Below are positions 19,167 through 25,856 of a stretch of DNA of 64,000 nucleotides, one piece after another. Position 1 is the stretch's first letter. The number at the start of each line of letters is the position of its first letter. The DNA lies in assembly GCA_044350705.1 (NCBI GenBank), contig JBILHA010000001.1:426676-490675 (forward strand), given 5' to 3'. A program made the translations under genes and the position numbers. The notes below the pieces were generated by a model. That model was not told the origin of the DNA, did not search any database, and saw only the letters and a program-made list of their open reading frames with translations. Source of the stretch: Candidatus Kapaibacterium sp. GTDB lineage: Bacteria > Patescibacteriota > Patescibacteriia > UBA9934.

Positions 19167-19679
19167 TTAAGCTCTTGCCTGGTCATTGAGAATCACCAAA
19201 TCTACCCAGTCTTTCATAAGGGCGAGATTTCTTTCTCCCGTTTCTCTTTTGGTAATCCAAAGAATCCCGTCAGGTTCCGGCATTCCCCATGTGCGCGCCT
19301 TTTCCTCTCTATACACCCTTTCGATTTCCCGATCTCCGGGAAACATGGGGTATTGCACGAGCATCACCCACTTCTCCCACGCTTCTTTCTCTGCAAACTC
19401 GGAGGGAATCTCTTCGTATCCTTTTATTTCTCCGCCCTGTATCGCTACATCTTTTTTCCGCAGTTCCTTCATTATTTGATCCGCGAAATATGACTTCCCT
19501 GCATTCGGCAAACCATACACTATGAACGTTACCAGGTTCTTTTCTCTCAGCTTTTCTTCAGTATTTTTTGCTACCCGGCTCACGCCCTCTCCAAAATCTA
19601 CGATATTTGCATCACGCTCTCGTTTTTCTCTTCGCTCTCCCACTGATTCCATACGCTTCATTTTCAAAAAATATCTCAA
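19167..19679 (-). CDS. Small P-loop NTPase/kinase-like protein
   Basis: Walker A GLPNAGKSYF. 170 aa. No further family assignment possible by eye. Confidence 0.5.
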   Translation of the reverse strand: MRYFLKMKRMESVGERREKRERDANIVDFGEGVSRVAKNTEEKLREKNLVTFIVYGLPNAGKSYFADQIMKELRKKDVAIQGGEIKGYEEIPSEFAEKEAWEKWVMLVQYPMFPGDREIERVYREEKARTWGMPEPDGILWITKRETGERNLALMKDWVDLVILNDQARA

Positions 19680-19688
19680 GCTCCATCA

Positions 19689-20528
19689 TCATACAATTTC
19701 CCCCTTCTTCTTTCCAAACAAAAATGCTTCATCGCCAACTTTTTTTCTTGGACGAACGAAGAGCACTACACCATCATCTTCCACACCAACCTCCTCTCCC
19801 CCATCTTTTCCTATACATTGGCCGCGCGTAACCTCTTCAAAGTCAGCGAAGATTTTTTCTGGGTTGAAGGTATTTGTTTTTGTGTGATAGAGCGATTCCA
19901 TGTGTATCCATTCTTTGGGAGATTGCACGGGGGCATTTCCTGAAATATGGCCGCGCACTATGAGGAATGCATTCATCGCTTCTTTTGCACGCGCTACGCT
20001 TTCCGGATCGTTGATGTACCCTGCTTCAAAGCAAATTCCCACGCCGCCCTGCATGTTGATGTACCCGTCAGAACCACCCGGTTCGAGCGCATCAAATCCG
20101 CTCACCATGCGCTTTGCGGGGAACGTTGCCGCATATGCAAATGCGTGTGGCTCGCATATACAGAATGGTTCGCTTTCGGGGGAGTTGCTTGCGTGAATGT
20201 CGAGGAGTGCATCGACGCCTTCAAGGTCGGAAAGGATTTCTCGGGAGCGCGCGTACTCGTATGTACGCTTCACCTCATCGGAAACCGCATCTTCGGAACA
20301 GAACAAGCGATTGAGATTATATTCGACAAAGCGAACCCCTTCTTCGACCGCCTTTGGATTTCCCACAATAATACGCACCTCGCCTTTTTCGATAGTCTGC
20401 AAGTTCATTTCTTCTATTGCGCGTATACCGGCAAGCTCGTTTCCGTGTACCCCCACGAGAATTGCACTGACGTTTCCTAATTGTGTTCCTTTGAGAATTT
20501 TTGTGGGGGGAGTTTGATTCATAGACAA
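19689..20528 (-). CDS. Succinylglutamate desuccinylase/aspartoacylase (AstE/AspA) family zinc hydrolase
   Basis: VGVHGNELAG zinc-ligand motif. 279 aa. Confidence 0.75.
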   Translation of the reverse strand: MSMNQTPPTKILKGTQLGNVSAILVGVHGNELAGIRAIEEMNLQTIEKGEVRIIVGNPKAVEEGVRFVEYNLNRLFCSEDAVSDEVKRTYEYARSREILSDLEGVDALLDIHASNSPESEPFCICEPHAFAYAATFPAKRMVSGFDALEPGGSDGYINMQGGVGICFEAGYINDPESVARAKEAMNAFLIVRGHISGNAPVQSPKEWIHMESLYHTKTNTFNPEKIFADFEEVTRGQCIGKDGGEEVGVEDDGVVLFVRPRKKVGDEAFLFGKKKGEIV

Positions 20529-20714
20529 CGCCCCATTTTTTCAGATTTTCTCTCAATTGTAAAACCTCAATTTGTTTACCTTTACTTCTGTTCAAGATCT
20601 TTCAGTACCACCCCTTCTCCGGTCTTCCACTCCGTCCAGCCATTTGCGGAACGTGCGAGGACAATTGCGGCGGCGGCACTCGGAGAGGAGAAGAGGTGGT
20701 CTTGGGTGAAGATG

Positions 20715-21341
20715 CTAGGTCTCGATGAAATTTATCTCATCTTCGTATATGACGATCTTCTCAATTCCATCATTCCCAATTTTAACAATCTCATTTTTTA
20801 ATATTTTTCCATTCAAAAGATATCTACACCGTGCATTATTAACTTCATTTATTTCTTCGTGAGGATTTGATACTAAAAATATCCCTCTTGTAAGCTTTTT
20901 TGAGGCCTCCAGAAGCTTCCCAACTTCATCTTCTAAAAGATTTGTATTTTTATGAAAAACAATAATTAAACCATATGCATTTGTTTGTACTTTTTTCTTG
21001 TTTAAAATTTCTTTCAAAAATTCACTGAAAGTATTTTTATCTTTTTCATGAAATTCTTTAACGTCAAAAACAATACCTCTCATTCCATTAGAATCTCCGC
21101 ACGCAAAGATTACATCCCCTCTTTCTTCCTCAGGAAAGAAGAGTAAATGAGAGCATCCCTCAATGTCGTCAAAAAGTCTGCAGGCAAATAAGGAAAAATA
21201 TGCCTCTCTTATTTTTAAATATTTATGATTATTTAAAAAAATATCTTTATGCTTCTCTTTTGAATAAATCTCATGAAATATATTAAAAACACTGGATTGC
21301 GGAATGAGCCTTTTAACAGGAATGTCTCTATCTTGATTCAT
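20715..21341 (-). CDS. Hypothetical protein (208 aa) translationally coupled to the nuclease-helicase gene in the AT-rich island
   Basis: Its start overlaps the stop of the upstream helicase ORF by 14 nt. Very AT-rich codon usage. No recognisable motif. Confidence 0.5.
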
Positions 21342-23202
21342 GATTCATTGTTTTGATTTTTATTCTTTTTCTCACATACTCCTTTACGTTTTCATCCACA
21401 AAATACACATAACACCCCTTCATTCCACGTGACATGAGGACTTTGTAAATATTTCTCACAAGCTGGTTCATACGCTCGGGATTGTTTTTTAATCCCTTCT
21501 TTCCATTCGCATCTTTGTACTCATTCCATTTTGTAAAATACTCCATTTTTTCAGCATCAAACTGGAGGTCTTTCCCCACAATAACTCCCACATAATCGAA
21601 CTCAAGACCTTGCGATGTATGCACACATCCTGCTTGGTCAATACCGTCTCCATCAATTGCCCACGTCGTACCGATGCGACGAGAATTCCACGGCATACTG
21701 AAATCGTACTCTGGAATAACAATATCGTGATGATTTGCATCGGGATTTCCCGCATTTGCGGCCGTCCATTTCCATGCATATCCTGCAAGAACACGCGCAC
21801 TTTTACCTGCCGTTTGCTTCTTTTTTATCTCTGCAACTAATTCTTTCGGATCATCAAAGATGCGGAAATCAAATTTTTCCCTATCCCATCCGTCGTAGTT
21901 TGCAGTCTCGCGAATATGAAGTGTGTTATCAAGCCAATTCAAATATCCTTGAGCACCAGCGCAACGAAATTGCGCCTGTAACTCCACTTCAAATACTTCA
22001 GCACCCTCTTGTTTTACTACTCGCTTTATCTCCTCCACCGATCCCACATCATCCGGACGAATTACCTGATTATCATCAACGAAAAATATACTCACCTTTG
22101 CCGCGCGAACTATATCTTCCACCTGATTTTCTCCCTGATACATATAGGCTCCTGCTTTCTTCAAGCGATGAGCTTCATCTACGATCACTACATCAAATGC
22201 ATTCGCTTCTGTATCCACAAAACTTCCTGAACCTCTAAAAAGTGACTGGATGCGGTTCTTTGCATGCTCTTGTGCAAGTTTGTGCATGAGAACTGTTCTA
22301 AATGAAGCATTCGGCGCTACAAAAACTGCATTTTTTTCTTCTTTTAATAATCCCCCGAGAAGATTTACCGAAACGACCGATTTTCCCGTTCCCGGTCCGC
22401 CCTTAATAAGTACTACGGACTTTGATACATGCTTTAGCGCAACATGCTTTGCGGTCTCATATGCAATCTTTTGCTCATCCAAAAGCACAAACTCTTGATT
22501 TCCTTCAAGCATTCCTGAAACATGGTCAATAAGTTTTTTACTTGGACGAATACGACCATATTCAACTTCGTATAGAATATCGTCTCCGTTTCCCTTTCCT
22601 ACATACTTTTTCAAAAACTTCTCCAACTTCTCCTGATCATCCTTAAGATAGAGCGGTGCAAGATCTGTATGCTCTTTATATATCTCTGCTTCTAATGGTT
22701 CCGGATTTTGTCTTATGTAATTGTGAAGATAGGCGCACGCATGTGCATTAAGTTGCTTTGTTTCAATATTTTCATTGTAGTCTTCGAGATACATCTGATA
22801 TGAGCTCGCCTGATATGAAGGGTGTGTTGTTTCGCGTACAGCACCTCCGAGAAATGTTTTTACCAAACCATCCTTTTCGGTCGCCTCAGCTTTATCCCAT
22901 TGTTTAAGCTCAACAATGACGAAGTGTCTATTTCCTTCGTCATCATGTCCTGCTATAAAAAAATCGATGCGATTTGAAGTCGCAGGAATGACGTATTCAA
23001 TTAAAATGCCACATGTAGGATTAAGATCTGCACGCCGGACAATACGCTCCATATACTGCAAAGAGTTTGTCATTGCACGTTTTTCCGAAGGTGAAACCCT
23101 TCGCCCCAATCCATCTTCGAATGCCTTTTCTACAACATCGGCAATAATATTTCTATCAACGTATTCACGAAATTCTTCAAGCGTACTGCGATATAAAAAC
23201 AT
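21328..23202 (-). CDS. PD-(D/E)xK nuclease domain fused to a DUF2075-type SF1 helicase/ATPase (Nhi/Schlafen-like architecture)
   Basis: N-terminus GILIEYVIP...RIDFFIAGHDDEGNRHFVIVELKQW gives an E...D...ExK motif set. Walker A GGPGTGKS, Walker B VVIVDEAHRL, SF1 motif VI-like CVHTSQGLEFDYVGVIVG, and DUF2075-like AGYAWKW. Confidence 0.8.
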   Translation of the reverse strand: MFLYRSTLEEFREYVDRNIIADVVEKAFEDGLGRRVSPSEKRAMTNSLQYMERIVRRADLNPTCGILIEYVIPATSNRIDFFIAGHDDEGNRHFVIVELKQWDKAEATEKDGLVKTFLGGAVRETTHPSYQASSYQMYLEDYNENIETKQLNAHACAYLHNYIRQNPEPLEAEIYKEHTDLAPLYLKDDQEKLEKFLKKYVGKGNGDDILYEVEYGRIRPSKKLIDHVSGMLEGNQEFVLLDEQKIAYETAKHVALKHVSKSVVLIKGGPGTGKSVVSVNLLGGLLKEEKNAVFVAPNASFRTVLMHKLAQEHAKNRIQSLFRGSGSFVDTEANAFDVVIVDEAHRLKKAGAYMYQGENQVEDIVRAAKVSIFFVDDNQVIRPDDVGSVEEIKRVVKQEGAEVFEVELQAQFRCAGAQGYLNWLDNTLHIRETANYDGWDREKFDFRIFDDPKELVAEIKKKQTAGKSARVLAGYAWKWTAANAGNPDANHHDIVIPEYDFSMPWNSRRIGTTWAIDGDGIDQAGCVHTSQGLEFDYVGVIVGKDLQFDAEKMEYFTKWNEYKDANGKKGLKNNPERMNQLVRNIYKVLMSRGMKGCYVYFVDENVKEYVRKRIKIKTMNHESR

Positions 23203-23205
23203 ATT

Positions 23206-23571
23206 CTAAAGATCAGTATATTTCGTATGCACTCCTTTCGCTTTTTCTACAGGGTATTTCTCTTCATTCTTCCGCATCTTTTCTTCTAGTGCCGTAAAGA
23301 CATCAATATCAAAATCATGCGCCATAAGTAAAATCCAATAAAGCGTATCTGCGAGTTCCTCCCCCACCGCCTTCTTTTTATCCTCACGTTCAAGATACAT
23401 TTTCATTTCTTCTGCATTCTTCCACTGAAAATGTTCCATGACTTCAGTAGCTTCAAGTACTAAAGAGACCGCGAGGTCTTTTGGGTTATGAAATTGTTTC
23501 CAGTCGCGAGCATTGCGGAAGGCGATAATGCGCTGAGTCAAAGAATTAATATCCATCATATCTAGCTGCAA
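23206..23571 (-). CDS. MazG-like nucleoside-triphosphate pyrophosphohydrolase (all-alpha NTP-PPase)
   Basis: 121 aa. EELADTLYWILLMAHDFDIDV and LVLEATEVMEHFQW are typical MazG-domain helices. Its stop is 3 nt from the helicase start. Confidence 0.75.
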   Translation of the reverse strand: MQLDMMDINSLTQRIIAFRNARDWKQFHNPKDLAVSLVLEATEVMEHFQWKNAEEMKMYLEREDKKKAVGEELADTLYWILLMAHDFDIDVFTALEEKMRKNEEKYPVEKAKGVHTKYTDL

Positions 23572-23821
23572 TGGCGATACTTGTATTTTTTATAGCTTCC
23601 ATTGCAGTATTTTTTTTACCTATCTTTCAAAAAAACTTATAAGTTTTTCTCATTTATTTTGAGAATACCTTTCAGTCATATACTCGTCAATCGAGGTGGG
23701 CAATTAAAAATACCCTCGATTCGTACCATCAATATTTTTCAAAAAGGCTGTGAGACCCTTCCTTACGTCAGGGTCTTTCTTTACATCAGAGTCTTTTTTC
23801 TGCACATGATTGGAGCATACA

Positions 23822-23856
23822 AAAAACTCCAGGATTATTCCCGGAGTTTTTTTTAA
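23822..23856. terminator. Bidirectional rho-independent terminator (ctccagg-attatt-cccggag with A-run and T-run)
   Basis: Lies downstream of the HEPN-like gene on the minus strand. Separates it from the mazG-helicase operon promoter region. Confidence 0.55.
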
Positions 23857-23918
23857 CTCGTCTTTATTTTTAACTTTCTATATTTCTCTACTAACCTTCT
23901 TTGATCTTCGGCAGATTT

Positions 23919-24380
23919 TTATTTTGAAATCCCTGCATCAATCGCTATCTTTTTTCTTAAATTATTTAATACAATTCTCAATTCTTTCATTTTTTCCAAC
24001 GTAAGAATCATACTAAATTCAACCTCAAGATCTCTATTCTTCTGTGTTTTAAATTTTACCAACTGCATCATGCCATCTCCATCTATTTCTGCCATAATTC
24101 CATGTGCAAATGCATGTCTTAATTGCTTAAACTCCTCTGGAATTTTTATTTTTGGAAATTTGTCATTGAATTCTTCTATTATTTCTTCGAGCCGAATGAT
24201 AGAAAAGGCTTTTGGATAAACTTTATATACTTTTCCTTTCGCATAAGGGGGCTTGGGAAATTTCGATTCTTCCCCATCTTTTTTCGCAATTGCACACCTC
24301 ATAATGAATTCTATCGCGGCGATATCCCTTACTACCTCCCCCAGGCATTCAAAAAATTCTGAGATATCTTTTTTTTGCAT
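23919..24380 (-). CDS. Hypothetical protein with a HEPN-like Rx4H motif (LRHAFAHG)
   Basis: 153 aa. AT-rich. Immediately downstream of cysS. R-x4-H within a predicted helical region. Confidence 0.45.
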   Translation of the reverse strand: MQKKDISEFFECLGEVVRDIAAIEFIMRCAIAKKDGEESKFPKPPYAKGKVYKVYPKAFSIIRLEEIIEEFNDKFPKIKIPEEFKQLRHAFAHGIMAEIDGDGMMQLVKFKTQKNRDLEVEFSMILTLEKMKELRIVLNNLRKKIAIDAGISK

Positions 24381-24389
24381 ATATCTCCC

Positions 24390-25856
24390 TCAGGATGACA
24401 TGCGACTCTCCCTCACTCTCTGCCCCTTGGCAGTGTCTTCGACGGCGTAGCCTAATTCTGCCAACTGATCGCGGAGTTCGTCGGACTTTTGCCACTCTTT
24501 GGCGGCGCGGGCTTTTGCGCGGTCGTCGAGGAGCTTTTGCGCTTCATCGGTGATTTTTATAGGGCGAGCAACGACGTCTTCGAGGGCAAGACCGAGCACT
24601 TCATCCATTTTAAGCACGGTTGCGGATTTCACACCCGGAGCAAGGGTATCGTTATGCACGACTCCCCAAAAAATCGCGAGGGCACCCGGGGTGTCGAGGT
24701 CGTCGCGTATACGATCCATGAATGCGGTCATGCTTATTTCGTCGGCGTGCAGGTCGCCCGGCTTTGCCCAGTCACGGACTTCGTCGATGAGGTTGTTGAT
24801 CGCGTTTTGTGCGGCTTGCGCGGCATCGAAGGTGAAATTGAGATGCGTGCGGTAGTGTGCTCCCAAAAGGAAGAGGCGGAATGCGCGTGCGCTAATTCCC
24901 TTTTCGGCAAGTTCGTCGAGCGCGTACGTATTGCCAAGCGACTTACTCATTTTTCCGCCATCGACAAGCAAGAATTCGTTATGCATCCAAACGTTCGCTT
25001 CAAGGCATCCGCGTGCGGCATCGGTTTGTGCGAGTTCGTTTTCGTGGTGTACCGCAATGTGGTCAATGCCTCCCGTATGAATATCAAATGGAACGCCAAG
25101 GTACTTTTCCCCCATCGCAGAACATTCAATATGCCATCCGGGGAAGCCCTTGCCCCAAGGTGATTCCCATTCCATGTGACGCTTTGGCTGAGGCGATCCT
25201 GACGAAAGGAAGGATCCTTCGGTCGACTTTTTATCTCCCTCAGGATGACAAGGCTCGCTAAATTTCCAGAGTGCGAAATCTGCAGGGTTCTTTTTCTCTT
25301 CGTTTACGCCGATGCGTGCGCCTTCTTCTTTTTCAGACAGTGGCTGACGAGAAAGTTGCCCGTAGGAAGGAAGCTTGGACGTATCAAAATAGACGCCATC
25401 AGAAATGACGTATGCGAACCCGTTCTTCTCGATATCTTGAATCATGGTGATTTGCTCGGCGATGTGGTCGGTTGCGCGCGGCATGACATGCGGAAGCTGG
25501 ATGTTGAGCTTACCCAAGTCTTGCACGAAGAGATCGGTGTACTTTTTGGCGATATCCCACGCGGTCTCTCCGGTTTTCTTTGCGGCGACTTCCATTTTGT
25601 CATCGCCCTCCGATGCATCGTCAGTAAGGTGGCCGACGTCGGTGATGTTCATGACGTGGGTTACTTTGTATCCCTCAACTTCAAACATGCGGCGCAGGGT
25701 GTCGGCAAAAACGTAACTTCGGAGGTTACCAATGGAGGCGCGACCGTACACCGTAGGGCCACACACGTACATGCCGACCGTGTTAGGTTTTGCGGGAGTA
25801 AATGGACCCTGGGAGCGCGTAAGCGTGTTGTAGAGGGAAATCATAGCTTCCCGCAT
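24390..25856 (-). CDS. cysS: Cysteine--tRNA ligase
   Basis: HIGH-type motif (CGPTVYGRASIGN) and KMSKS (KMSKSLGN). 488 aa. Confidence 0.95.
   Translation of the reverse strand: MREAMISLYNTLTRSQGPFTPAKPNTVGMYVCGPTVYGRASIGNLRSYVFADTLRRMFEVEGYKVTHVMNITDVGHLTDDASEGDDKMEVAAKKTGETAWDIAKKYTDLFVQDLGKLNIQLPHVMPRATDHIAEQITMIQDIEKNGFAYVISDGVYFDTSKLPSYGQLSRQPLSEKEEGARIGVNEEKKNPADFALWKFSEPCHPEGDKKSTEGSFLSSGSPQPKRHMEWESPWGKGFPGWHIECSAMGEKYLGVPFDIHTGGIDHIAVHHENELAQTDAARGCLEANVWMHNEFLLVDGGKMSKSLGNTYALDELAEKGISARAFRLFLLGAHYRTHLNFTFDAAQAAQNAINNLIDEVRDWAKPGDLHADEISMTAFMDRIRDDLDTPGALAIFWGVVHNDTLAPGVKSATVLKMDEVLGLALEDVVARPIKITDEAQKLLDDRAKARAAKEWQKSDELRDQLAELGYAVEDTAKGQRVRESRMSS

Follow-up and report, generated by a model that had tools for sequence, protein, structure and literature searches.

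The locus and its low-GC island

The genome of Candidatus Kapaibacterium sp. (assembly GCA_044350705.1, contig JBILHA010000001.1) carries a small AT-rich gene, here called orf208, which overlaps the 3' end of a nuclease-helicase gene at the edge of a low-GC island; all coordinates refer to the window, that is, the whole 64,000-nucleotide (nt) stretch that was analysed (contig positions 426,676 to 490,675). Here, we describe orf208 as a member of a rare and unnamed protein family that is predicted to consist of small PD-(D/E)xK endonucleases, whose relatives are found in or beside many unrelated defence operons and do not co-occur with the helicase that precedes orf208 in the window. The features of the island are the following:

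20715..21341, minus strand: orf208, 208 residues, ATG start; unnamed family with a predicted PD-(D/E)xK-type fold and motif
21328..23202, minus strand: nuclease-DUF2075/SLFN-g3 superfamily 1 (SF1) helicase (PF09848, 3e-96), with an Nhi-like architecture
23206..23571, minus strand: MazG-like nucleotide pyrophosphohydrolase (PF12643, 1.2e-17; PHROG 3301 pyrophosphatase, 7e-19)
23818..23855, minus strand: terminator-like hairpin (inverted repeat I3) with 17-nt arms, a 4-nt loop and a T-run
23919..24380, minus strand: orf153, an AT-rich (33.1% GC) orphan 9 nt 3' of cysS, at the other edge of the island

Bounded by cysS (24390-25856) and an AstE/AspA-like gene, the island covers roughly 20700-24400 and has a GC content of 30-43%, compared to about 53% in the upstream flank and 44-49% immediately downstream. 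Its composition is uneven, with 40.2% GC in the MazG-like gene, 40.9% in the helicase gene, 29.8% in orf208 and 33.1% in orf153, against 45-54% in the neighbouring host genes, which points to a mosaic origin. The hairpin at 23818-23855 separates cysS and orf153 from a transcription unit formed by the MazG-like gene, the helicase gene and orf208; no terminator-like site was found between these three genes, and the hairpin 3' of orf208 (z -1.9) lacks a U-run. No methyltransferase is encoded among the six genes at 19167-24380, the only part of the 64-kb window that was scanned for such enzymes.

The orf208 gene

The start of orf208 had been placed within the last codons of the helicase gene by the sequence-only reading of this DNA, and this holds to the nucleotide: the two genes overlap by 14 nt at 21328-21341 on the minus strand (ATGAATCAAGATAG). 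At the junction (...ACAATGAATCATGAATCAAGATAG...), the orf208 ATG at 21341 lies 14 nt ahead of the end of the helicase stop codon at 21328, so that the helicase frame ACA ATG AAT CAT GAA TCA AGA TAG holds the orf208 sequence ATG AAT CAA GAT AG. This ATG is the first start codon past an in-frame stop, and only with it is the conserved N-terminal motif of the protein retained. The gene is AT-rich, as had been noted, with 29.8% GC overall and 25.4% GC at third codon positions. At this composition stop codons are expected at about 8% of codons, and therefore an open frame of 208 codons is not a product of chance (about 3e-8 by our own arithmetic). Orf208 is a genuine gene, since relatives exist over its full length, the best of which was found at E 7e-48 and 46% identity in an exhaustive HMMER search.

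A rare family without a name

The family is small. A word-index protein search returned only orf208 itself, and its relatives came from the exhaustive HMMER search, which found 22 in 1.84 billion representative sequences; a profile search gave 16 clusters and a scan of metagenomes 29 loci. Together, 54 non-redundant members were assembled, which are 21-46% identical to the window protein and about 200-235 residues long. The members known so far come from uncultured bacteria, with one homologue annotated as Minisyncoccia, and searches of phage records, plasmids and 2.9 million viral contigs returned none. The closest metagenomic relative (L094, 1849-2472; 50% identical) has no start codon ahead of the conserved N-terminal motif and its frame runs on into the 3'-terminal part of the preceding gene; judged by its sequence, this copy would be either a 5'-truncated pseudogene or a gene that is expressed in an unusual way.

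That the protein could not be assigned to a family by eye is borne out by the database searches. Orf208 has no match in Pfam, NCBIfam or PHROG, and none of the 22 members matches Pfam at E values up to 1. A search of the family profile against PDB sequences gave nothing relevant; its one match, a uridylate cyclase at E 0.48, was dismissed as spurious. The HEC and PDC models of PADLOC v2 do not match the family. The sole PADLOC match of orf208 is to the prokaryotic Argonaute (pAgo) model PDLC02436 (E 4e-4, over 66 residues), and an identity as Argonaute (MID/PIWI) was rejected, as the model is matched by the window protein only and by none of the 21 other members.

Predicted fold and active site

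The alternation of hydrophobic strands and charged helices, from which the sequence-only reading had proposed a small alpha/beta fold, agrees with the AlphaFold model. Prediction from the single sequence was unusable (predicted local distance difference test score, pLDDT, of 43); the model was instead built from the family alignment, with a pLDDT of 81.3 and a predicted template modelling (pTM) score of 0.84. It consists of a helix (39-61), strands at 66-68, 77-83 and 86-97, helices at 105-119, a strand (123-129), a helix (137-147), a strand (154-158) and a C-terminal hairpin. The segments that had been quoted as examples correspond to strand 3 (GIVFDVKEF), strand 4 (GLIIVFHKN) and strand 5 (RGIFLVSNP). 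The order of elements in the model is the alpha-beta-beta-beta-alpha-beta core with mixed sheet of the PD-(D/E)xK enzymes, and throughout the family the residues of the catalytic pattern are found on helix 1 and on strands 2 and 3:

21204..21206, minus strand: codon of E46, helix 1 (39-61); acidic residue ahead of the core sheet
21114..21116, minus strand: codon of D76, opening strand 2 (77-83); the 'D' of PD
21054..21065, minus strand: codons of D93-V94-K95-E96, strand 3 (86-97); the '(D/E)xK' motif, FDVKE

E46, D93, K95 and E96 are invariant (54 of 54 members each), as is D76 (53 of 53), while R45, Y48, F52, H65 and Y123 are nearly invariant among the 54 non-redundant members. In the hairpin register of strands 77-83 and 86-97, D76 and D93 should be neighbours. 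The two are separated by 16 residues, and the spacing between the two catalytic Asp residues of EcoRV and BamHI is similar. No sequence or profile match to an established PD-(D/E)xK family was found in Pfam, NCBIfam, PHROG or PDB sequences. Foldseek searches of PDB and BFVD, which together with structure prediction had been proposed as a check, gave nothing below E 1e-3; the weak matches include HinP1I, FokI, SwaI, BamHI, Mrr-like proteins, Cas4, UL24, MmcB, Vsr and VRR-NUC. Going by the model and the conserved residues, orf208 very probably has a nuclease fold with an active site, and the protein is most likely a metal-dependent endonuclease, with Mg2+ as predicted metal.

A two-gene module and a variable slot

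The sequence-only reading had regarded orf208 as the third gene of a unit and as an obligate small partner of a defence helicase. That helicase carries a PD-(D/E)xK-type domain of its own, with the conserved residues E69, D80 and E98-x-K100 within the first 235 residues, followed towards the C-terminus by a Walker A (GGPGTGKS) and a Walker B (VDEAH) motif; it partially matches the PADLOC models PDC-S41 (1e-16) and AbiO/Nhi (1e-15). Its family is large (7991 matches below 1e-30), with many members from bacteria of the candidate phyla radiation, and its closest relative comes from a Parcubacteria-group genome. For the comparison of gene neighbourhoods, 80 genomic loci of helicase relatives and the two closest metagenomic loci were used, 82 in addition to the window. 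A hidden Markov model of the orf208 family detected no member in any of these 82 DUF2075 loci, and conversely none of the 39 other loci that encode orf208 relatives holds a DUF2075 gene. Conservation beside DUF2075 homologues, which had been named in advance as the test of the partnership, is thus absent in both directions, and the claim of an obligate partner falls with it. The MazG-like gene, on the other hand, is the direct, co-oriented neighbour of the helicase gene in 62 of 83 loci (upstream in 44 and downstream in 18); the loci come from Bacillota, Proteobacteria, Patescibacteria, Acidobacteriota and one archaeon of the Methanosarcinales. Because of this adjacency and the lack of orf208 co-occurrence either way, the conserved unit consists of two genes, the MazG-like gene and the nuclease-DUF2075 helicase gene. 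Of the proposed translational coupling within a three-gene unit, what stands is that the shared orientation and the overlap make coupling and co-transcription plausible.

Orthologous loci between cysS and ygjP hold unrelated genes in the third position, as is seen from the gene orders:

Window: cysS, orf153, MazG-like gene, helicase, orf208, AstE-like gene, P-loop gene, YgjP, surface protein
L092: cysS (86% identical), two small open reading frames (ORFs), MazG-like gene (86%), helicase (80%), ORFs of 109 and 85 residues, YgjP (55%), the same large surface protein
L093: MazG-like gene (86%), helicase (73%), an unrelated ORF of 274 residues, YgjP

In an all-against-all comparison of 20 genes from the slot 3' of DUF2075 helicases in other genomes, no two were related. 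Some of these genes encode nucleases of other families (PDDEXK_1 in L030, HNH in L007, RNase_T with BRCT in L027); others encode an McrB-like protein, DUF6904 or DUF2130, or have no Pfam family. The slot 3' of the helicase is a variable cargo site. Orf208 did not arise there as a duplicate of the nuclease domain of the helicase, a candidate that was rejected because hhalign finds no relation between the two (probability 0.7%). Two further genes lie between orf208 and ygjP in the window:

19689-20528, minus strand: AstE/AspA-like gene
19167-19679, minus strand: P-loop protein of 170 residues without a clear family

Both are missing from L092 and L093, and therefore the variable region reaches past orf208. 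At the other edge, orf153 lies outside the conserved module. It has no family in Pfam, NCBIfam or PHROG and only a weak PADLOC match to PDC-M12B (E 0.0017), and relatives were found in none of the other fetched loci. An exact 19-nt direct repeat, TATCTCCCTCAGGATGACA, occurs at 24382-24400 and 25232-25250, 850 nt apart, with the first copy across the junction of the cysS stop and orf153 and the second within cysS in a different reading frame. Such a repeat is not expected by chance in 6 kb, and may have been left at the junction of the island as a scar.

The module itself looks like an undescribed Nhi-like variant; no paper in the literature searched names DUF2075 and MazG together, and the MazG-like protein has no PADLOC model. 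Some close relatives of the helicase (57-61% identical) are about 760-780 residues long and carry a Peptidase_S24 (LexA-like) domain (P0045, P0054, P0061, P0064, P0066, P0082, P0089, P0096, P0103 and P0112). Helicase frames of about 780-820 codons are found in loci L003, L023, L031, L043, L044, L049, L050, L052, L054, L056-L058, L060, L064 and L081.

Genomic contexts of the relatives

The relatives of orf208 are found in contexts that have little in common with each other or with the window:

L082-L086: flanked by a BcgI-like enzyme (HSDR_N_2 + N6_Mtase + Eco57I) and the S subunit of this enzyme, GmrSD nearby
L110: inside a Type I system, flanked by hsdS (8-nt overlap) and hsdR
L112: 9 nt 3' of an EcoRI-type methylase
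L108: after an OLD-TOPRIM gene, adjoining an MmeI-like methylase
L099: an AAA_15 ATPase operon on one side, a ResIII helicase on the other
L109: after a reverse transcriptase
L089, L095, L104: after trypsin-like proteases
L120: before GmrSD
L113, L116, L117: adjoining DUF4238 proteins

A methylase is present in a minority of the family loci only (L112, L082-86, L108 and L110), and a few copies are located among housekeeping genes (L097, L106). Large serine recombinases are adjacent to the family gene in five loci (L087, L116, L117, L118 and L122). In the first of these (L087, 5852-8871), a tRNA-Ser gene is directly followed by the family gene, which overlaps a gene for an unknown protein of 297 residues, and then by the recombinase, an arrangement like that of a small integrative element that carries two genes as cargo. 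The family gene overlaps an unrelated upstream gene on the same strand, or starts no more than 25 nt from it, in about 16 of the 27 distinct contexts, and thus the 14-nt overlap in the window is a habit of the family and not evidence of a partnership.

No structure or motif that would mark the cassette was common to the loci. Folding of 120 nt downstream of the gene in 31 loci gave no consistent attC-like or terminator structure (z -3.9 to +1.5), and no downstream motif or repeat is shared across these loci with a single exception. This is the motif CCACGTGCCTCAAATC, found 3' of the family gene at about 820-850 in L100 and about 1770-1800 in L101, with a degenerate copy, CCCCGTGCCTAAAT, at about 6650-6680 in L104; this could be a site of attachment or regulation, or reflect a shared ancestry of the contigs.

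A probable independent add-on and its alternatives

We favour, with a probability of about 0.58, the explanation that orf208 encodes a small PD-(D/E)xK endonuclease which is spread as a mobile cassette and acts as an independent add-on defence gene. The protein would be a probably dimeric, metal-dependent endonuclease of the restriction-endonuclease-like fold; its predicted catalytic residues are E46 on helix 1, D76 where strand 2 begins, and D93-x-K95 together with E96 on strand 3. The family would form a mobile and mostly promoterless single-gene cassette, which lands 3' of or between the genes of unrelated defence operons, or rides beside serine recombinases, and is transcribed by read-through from the host operon. 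In the window this operon would be that of the MazG-like gene and the helicase: orf208 is most likely a recent AT-rich insertion behind an older module of MazG-like and Nhi-like helicase genes between cysS and ygjP, and would be co-transcribed and probably translationally coupled to it via the overlap. A defence role is rather probable from the genomic contexts, and we take orf208 to be an independent add-on that cleaves nucleic acid, and not a subunit of the helicase system, because a gene nested within a defence operon is, as a rule, a self-contained defence system. Functional dependence on the helicase appears improbable, and both this independence and the substrate are put forward as the most likely reading. 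As most loci of the family, including this island, are without a methyltransferase, a conventional restriction enzyme that is blocked by methylation is unlikely; cleavage would then be limited by the type of target (modified or structured DNA) or by regulation, and not by host methylation. Phages that lose a DNA methylase of their own have been reported to escape from the Nhi-like system (10.1101/2022.08.27.505566), an observation that may be relevant to orf208 as a lead, not as evidence.

An alternative that we consider unlikely is that the family is a promoterless plug-in nuclease, recruited functionally by any defence machine behind which it happens to insert; in the window this would be the DUF2075 helicase, and in other loci HsdR, a ResIII helicase or OLD/AAA_15 ATPases. 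It could serve as an interchangeable cutter supplied by the motor, or, like PrrC, as a guard triggered once a phage inhibitor blocks the host system. If this were true, the family would be a portable effector common to otherwise unrelated immune systems.

It is rather improbable that orf208 is a true third component, a sensor or effector held in fixed ratio by translational coupling and in complex with the helicase. The overlap, the shared strand and the uninterrupted transcription unit speak for it, and the tight linkage of nucleases of other families in the same slot (L030, L007, L027) hints at an exchangeable accessory. However, the two families do not co-occur in either direction and orthologous loci lack orf208, the base composition of orf208 is unlike that of the helicase gene, and a conserved nuclease domain is already present in the helicase itself. 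A downstream nuclease gene is missing from most DUF2075 loci, and the orf208 family overlaps or abuts many unrelated genes. Of the suggestion that orf208 is a sensor or effector of the helicase, the effector role, as a nuclease, remains likely, and the obligate partnership does not.

A selfish mobile nuclease, akin to homing endonucleases or carried as cargo of an integrative element and of no defensive benefit to the host, has similarly slender odds. The rare and patchy distribution, the AT-richness of several loci relative to their flanks, the insertion between operon genes, the serine recombinases and tRNA genes nearby and the 5'-truncated copy would all suit such an element. On the other hand, the family is not associated with introns or inteins, neither a flanking repeat nor an attC-like structure is conserved downstream, and no member was found in the viral, phage and plasmid sequences searched; its strong preference for defence operons agrees better with guilt-by-embedding.

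More improbable still is a conventional Type II restriction endonuclease, of which orf208 would be a solitary or decaying copy with its methyltransferase elsewhere or lost. The protein has the PD-(D/E)xK motif and the usual size of a Type II enzyme, the L112 relative comes directly after an EcoRI-type methylase, and other relatives reside in restriction-modification (RM) operons (L082-86, L108, L110). Yet no methyltransferase is found in most contexts, including the low-GC island, and the RM operons concerned already encode nuclease domains (HSDR_N_2, HsdR). The window copy retains every catalytic residue, and a conventional enzyme without protection would presumably be lethal. Finally, a non-catalytic protein with a nuclease-like fold (regulator, immunity protein or scaffold), or one with an Argonaute-related domain, is scarcely credible, since the Argonaute model is matched by one of 22 members and is no property of the family, and the invariance of five charged residues in the exact PD-(D/E)xK pattern at 21-46% identity argues for catalysis.

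Comparison with known systems

The PD-(D/E)xK superfamily includes Type II and Type IV restriction endonucleases, CdiA-CT toxins, XisH and Mrr-like proteins. Orf208 resembles these in the predicted core fold, the acidic residue of helix 1, the Asp of strand 2 and the D-x-K of strand 3, as well as in its small size and its setting in a defence island. It differs by the additional invariant E96 and the near-invariant H65, by an N-terminal helical segment and a C-terminal beta-hairpin, and its family has no detectable similarity, in sequence or profile, to named families and mostly no cognate methylase.

Defence genes that are nested in other defence systems form a second group for comparison. 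PrrC is nested inside EcoprrI. In Vibrio, TgvAB is nested inside a Type I RM system (PMC11411939), and defence genes nested in defence operons have been collected as HEC and PDC candidates through guilt-by-embedding (Payne et al., 2024; 10.1101/2024.01.29.577857). Relatives of orf208 likewise lie between the genes of known defence systems, with hsdS and hsdR on either side in L110, and a BcgI-like RM gene and the S gene belonging to it in L082-L086, as single-gene cassettes read from the host operon. The family differs from these examples in that it has no match to the HEC and PDC models and no ATPase, HEPN or GmrSD domains; the window copy differs further, as it is appended 3' of the last gene of a two-gene candidate module and is adjacent to it, not embedded.

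Nhi and Nhi-like proteins combine an N-terminal nuclease with a DUF2075 SF1 helicase (Bari et al., 10.1101/776245; Millman et al., 2022, 10.1101/2022.05.11.491447). The helicase in the window shares this architecture and has orf208 in its transcription unit. Nhi and Nhi-like systems appear to be single proteins. Orf208 is unrelated in sequence to the nuclease domain of the helicase. Orf208 is not a member of an Nhi-type system, since the defining co-occurrence with DUF2075 was looked for and is absent.

Significance

Because it is PD-(D/E)xK by predicted fold and motif, yet matches no named family or PADLOC v2 model, the orf208 family represents a putative new family of small nucleases and a new defence candidate of the embedded type. 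It would extend the set of anti-phage candidates by a further nuclease family without a name, with at least eight different defence contexts as support, and is one of many candidate defence nucleases; nothing suggests an unusual mechanism. For annotation pipelines, the locus illustrates that an overlap of start and stop codons does not by itself define a system. The model of the locus is corrected to a two-gene module, distributed across many bacterial phyla and one archaeon, with a variable slot 3' of it, and the conserved pairing of the MazG-like and DUF2075 genes may merit attention separately.
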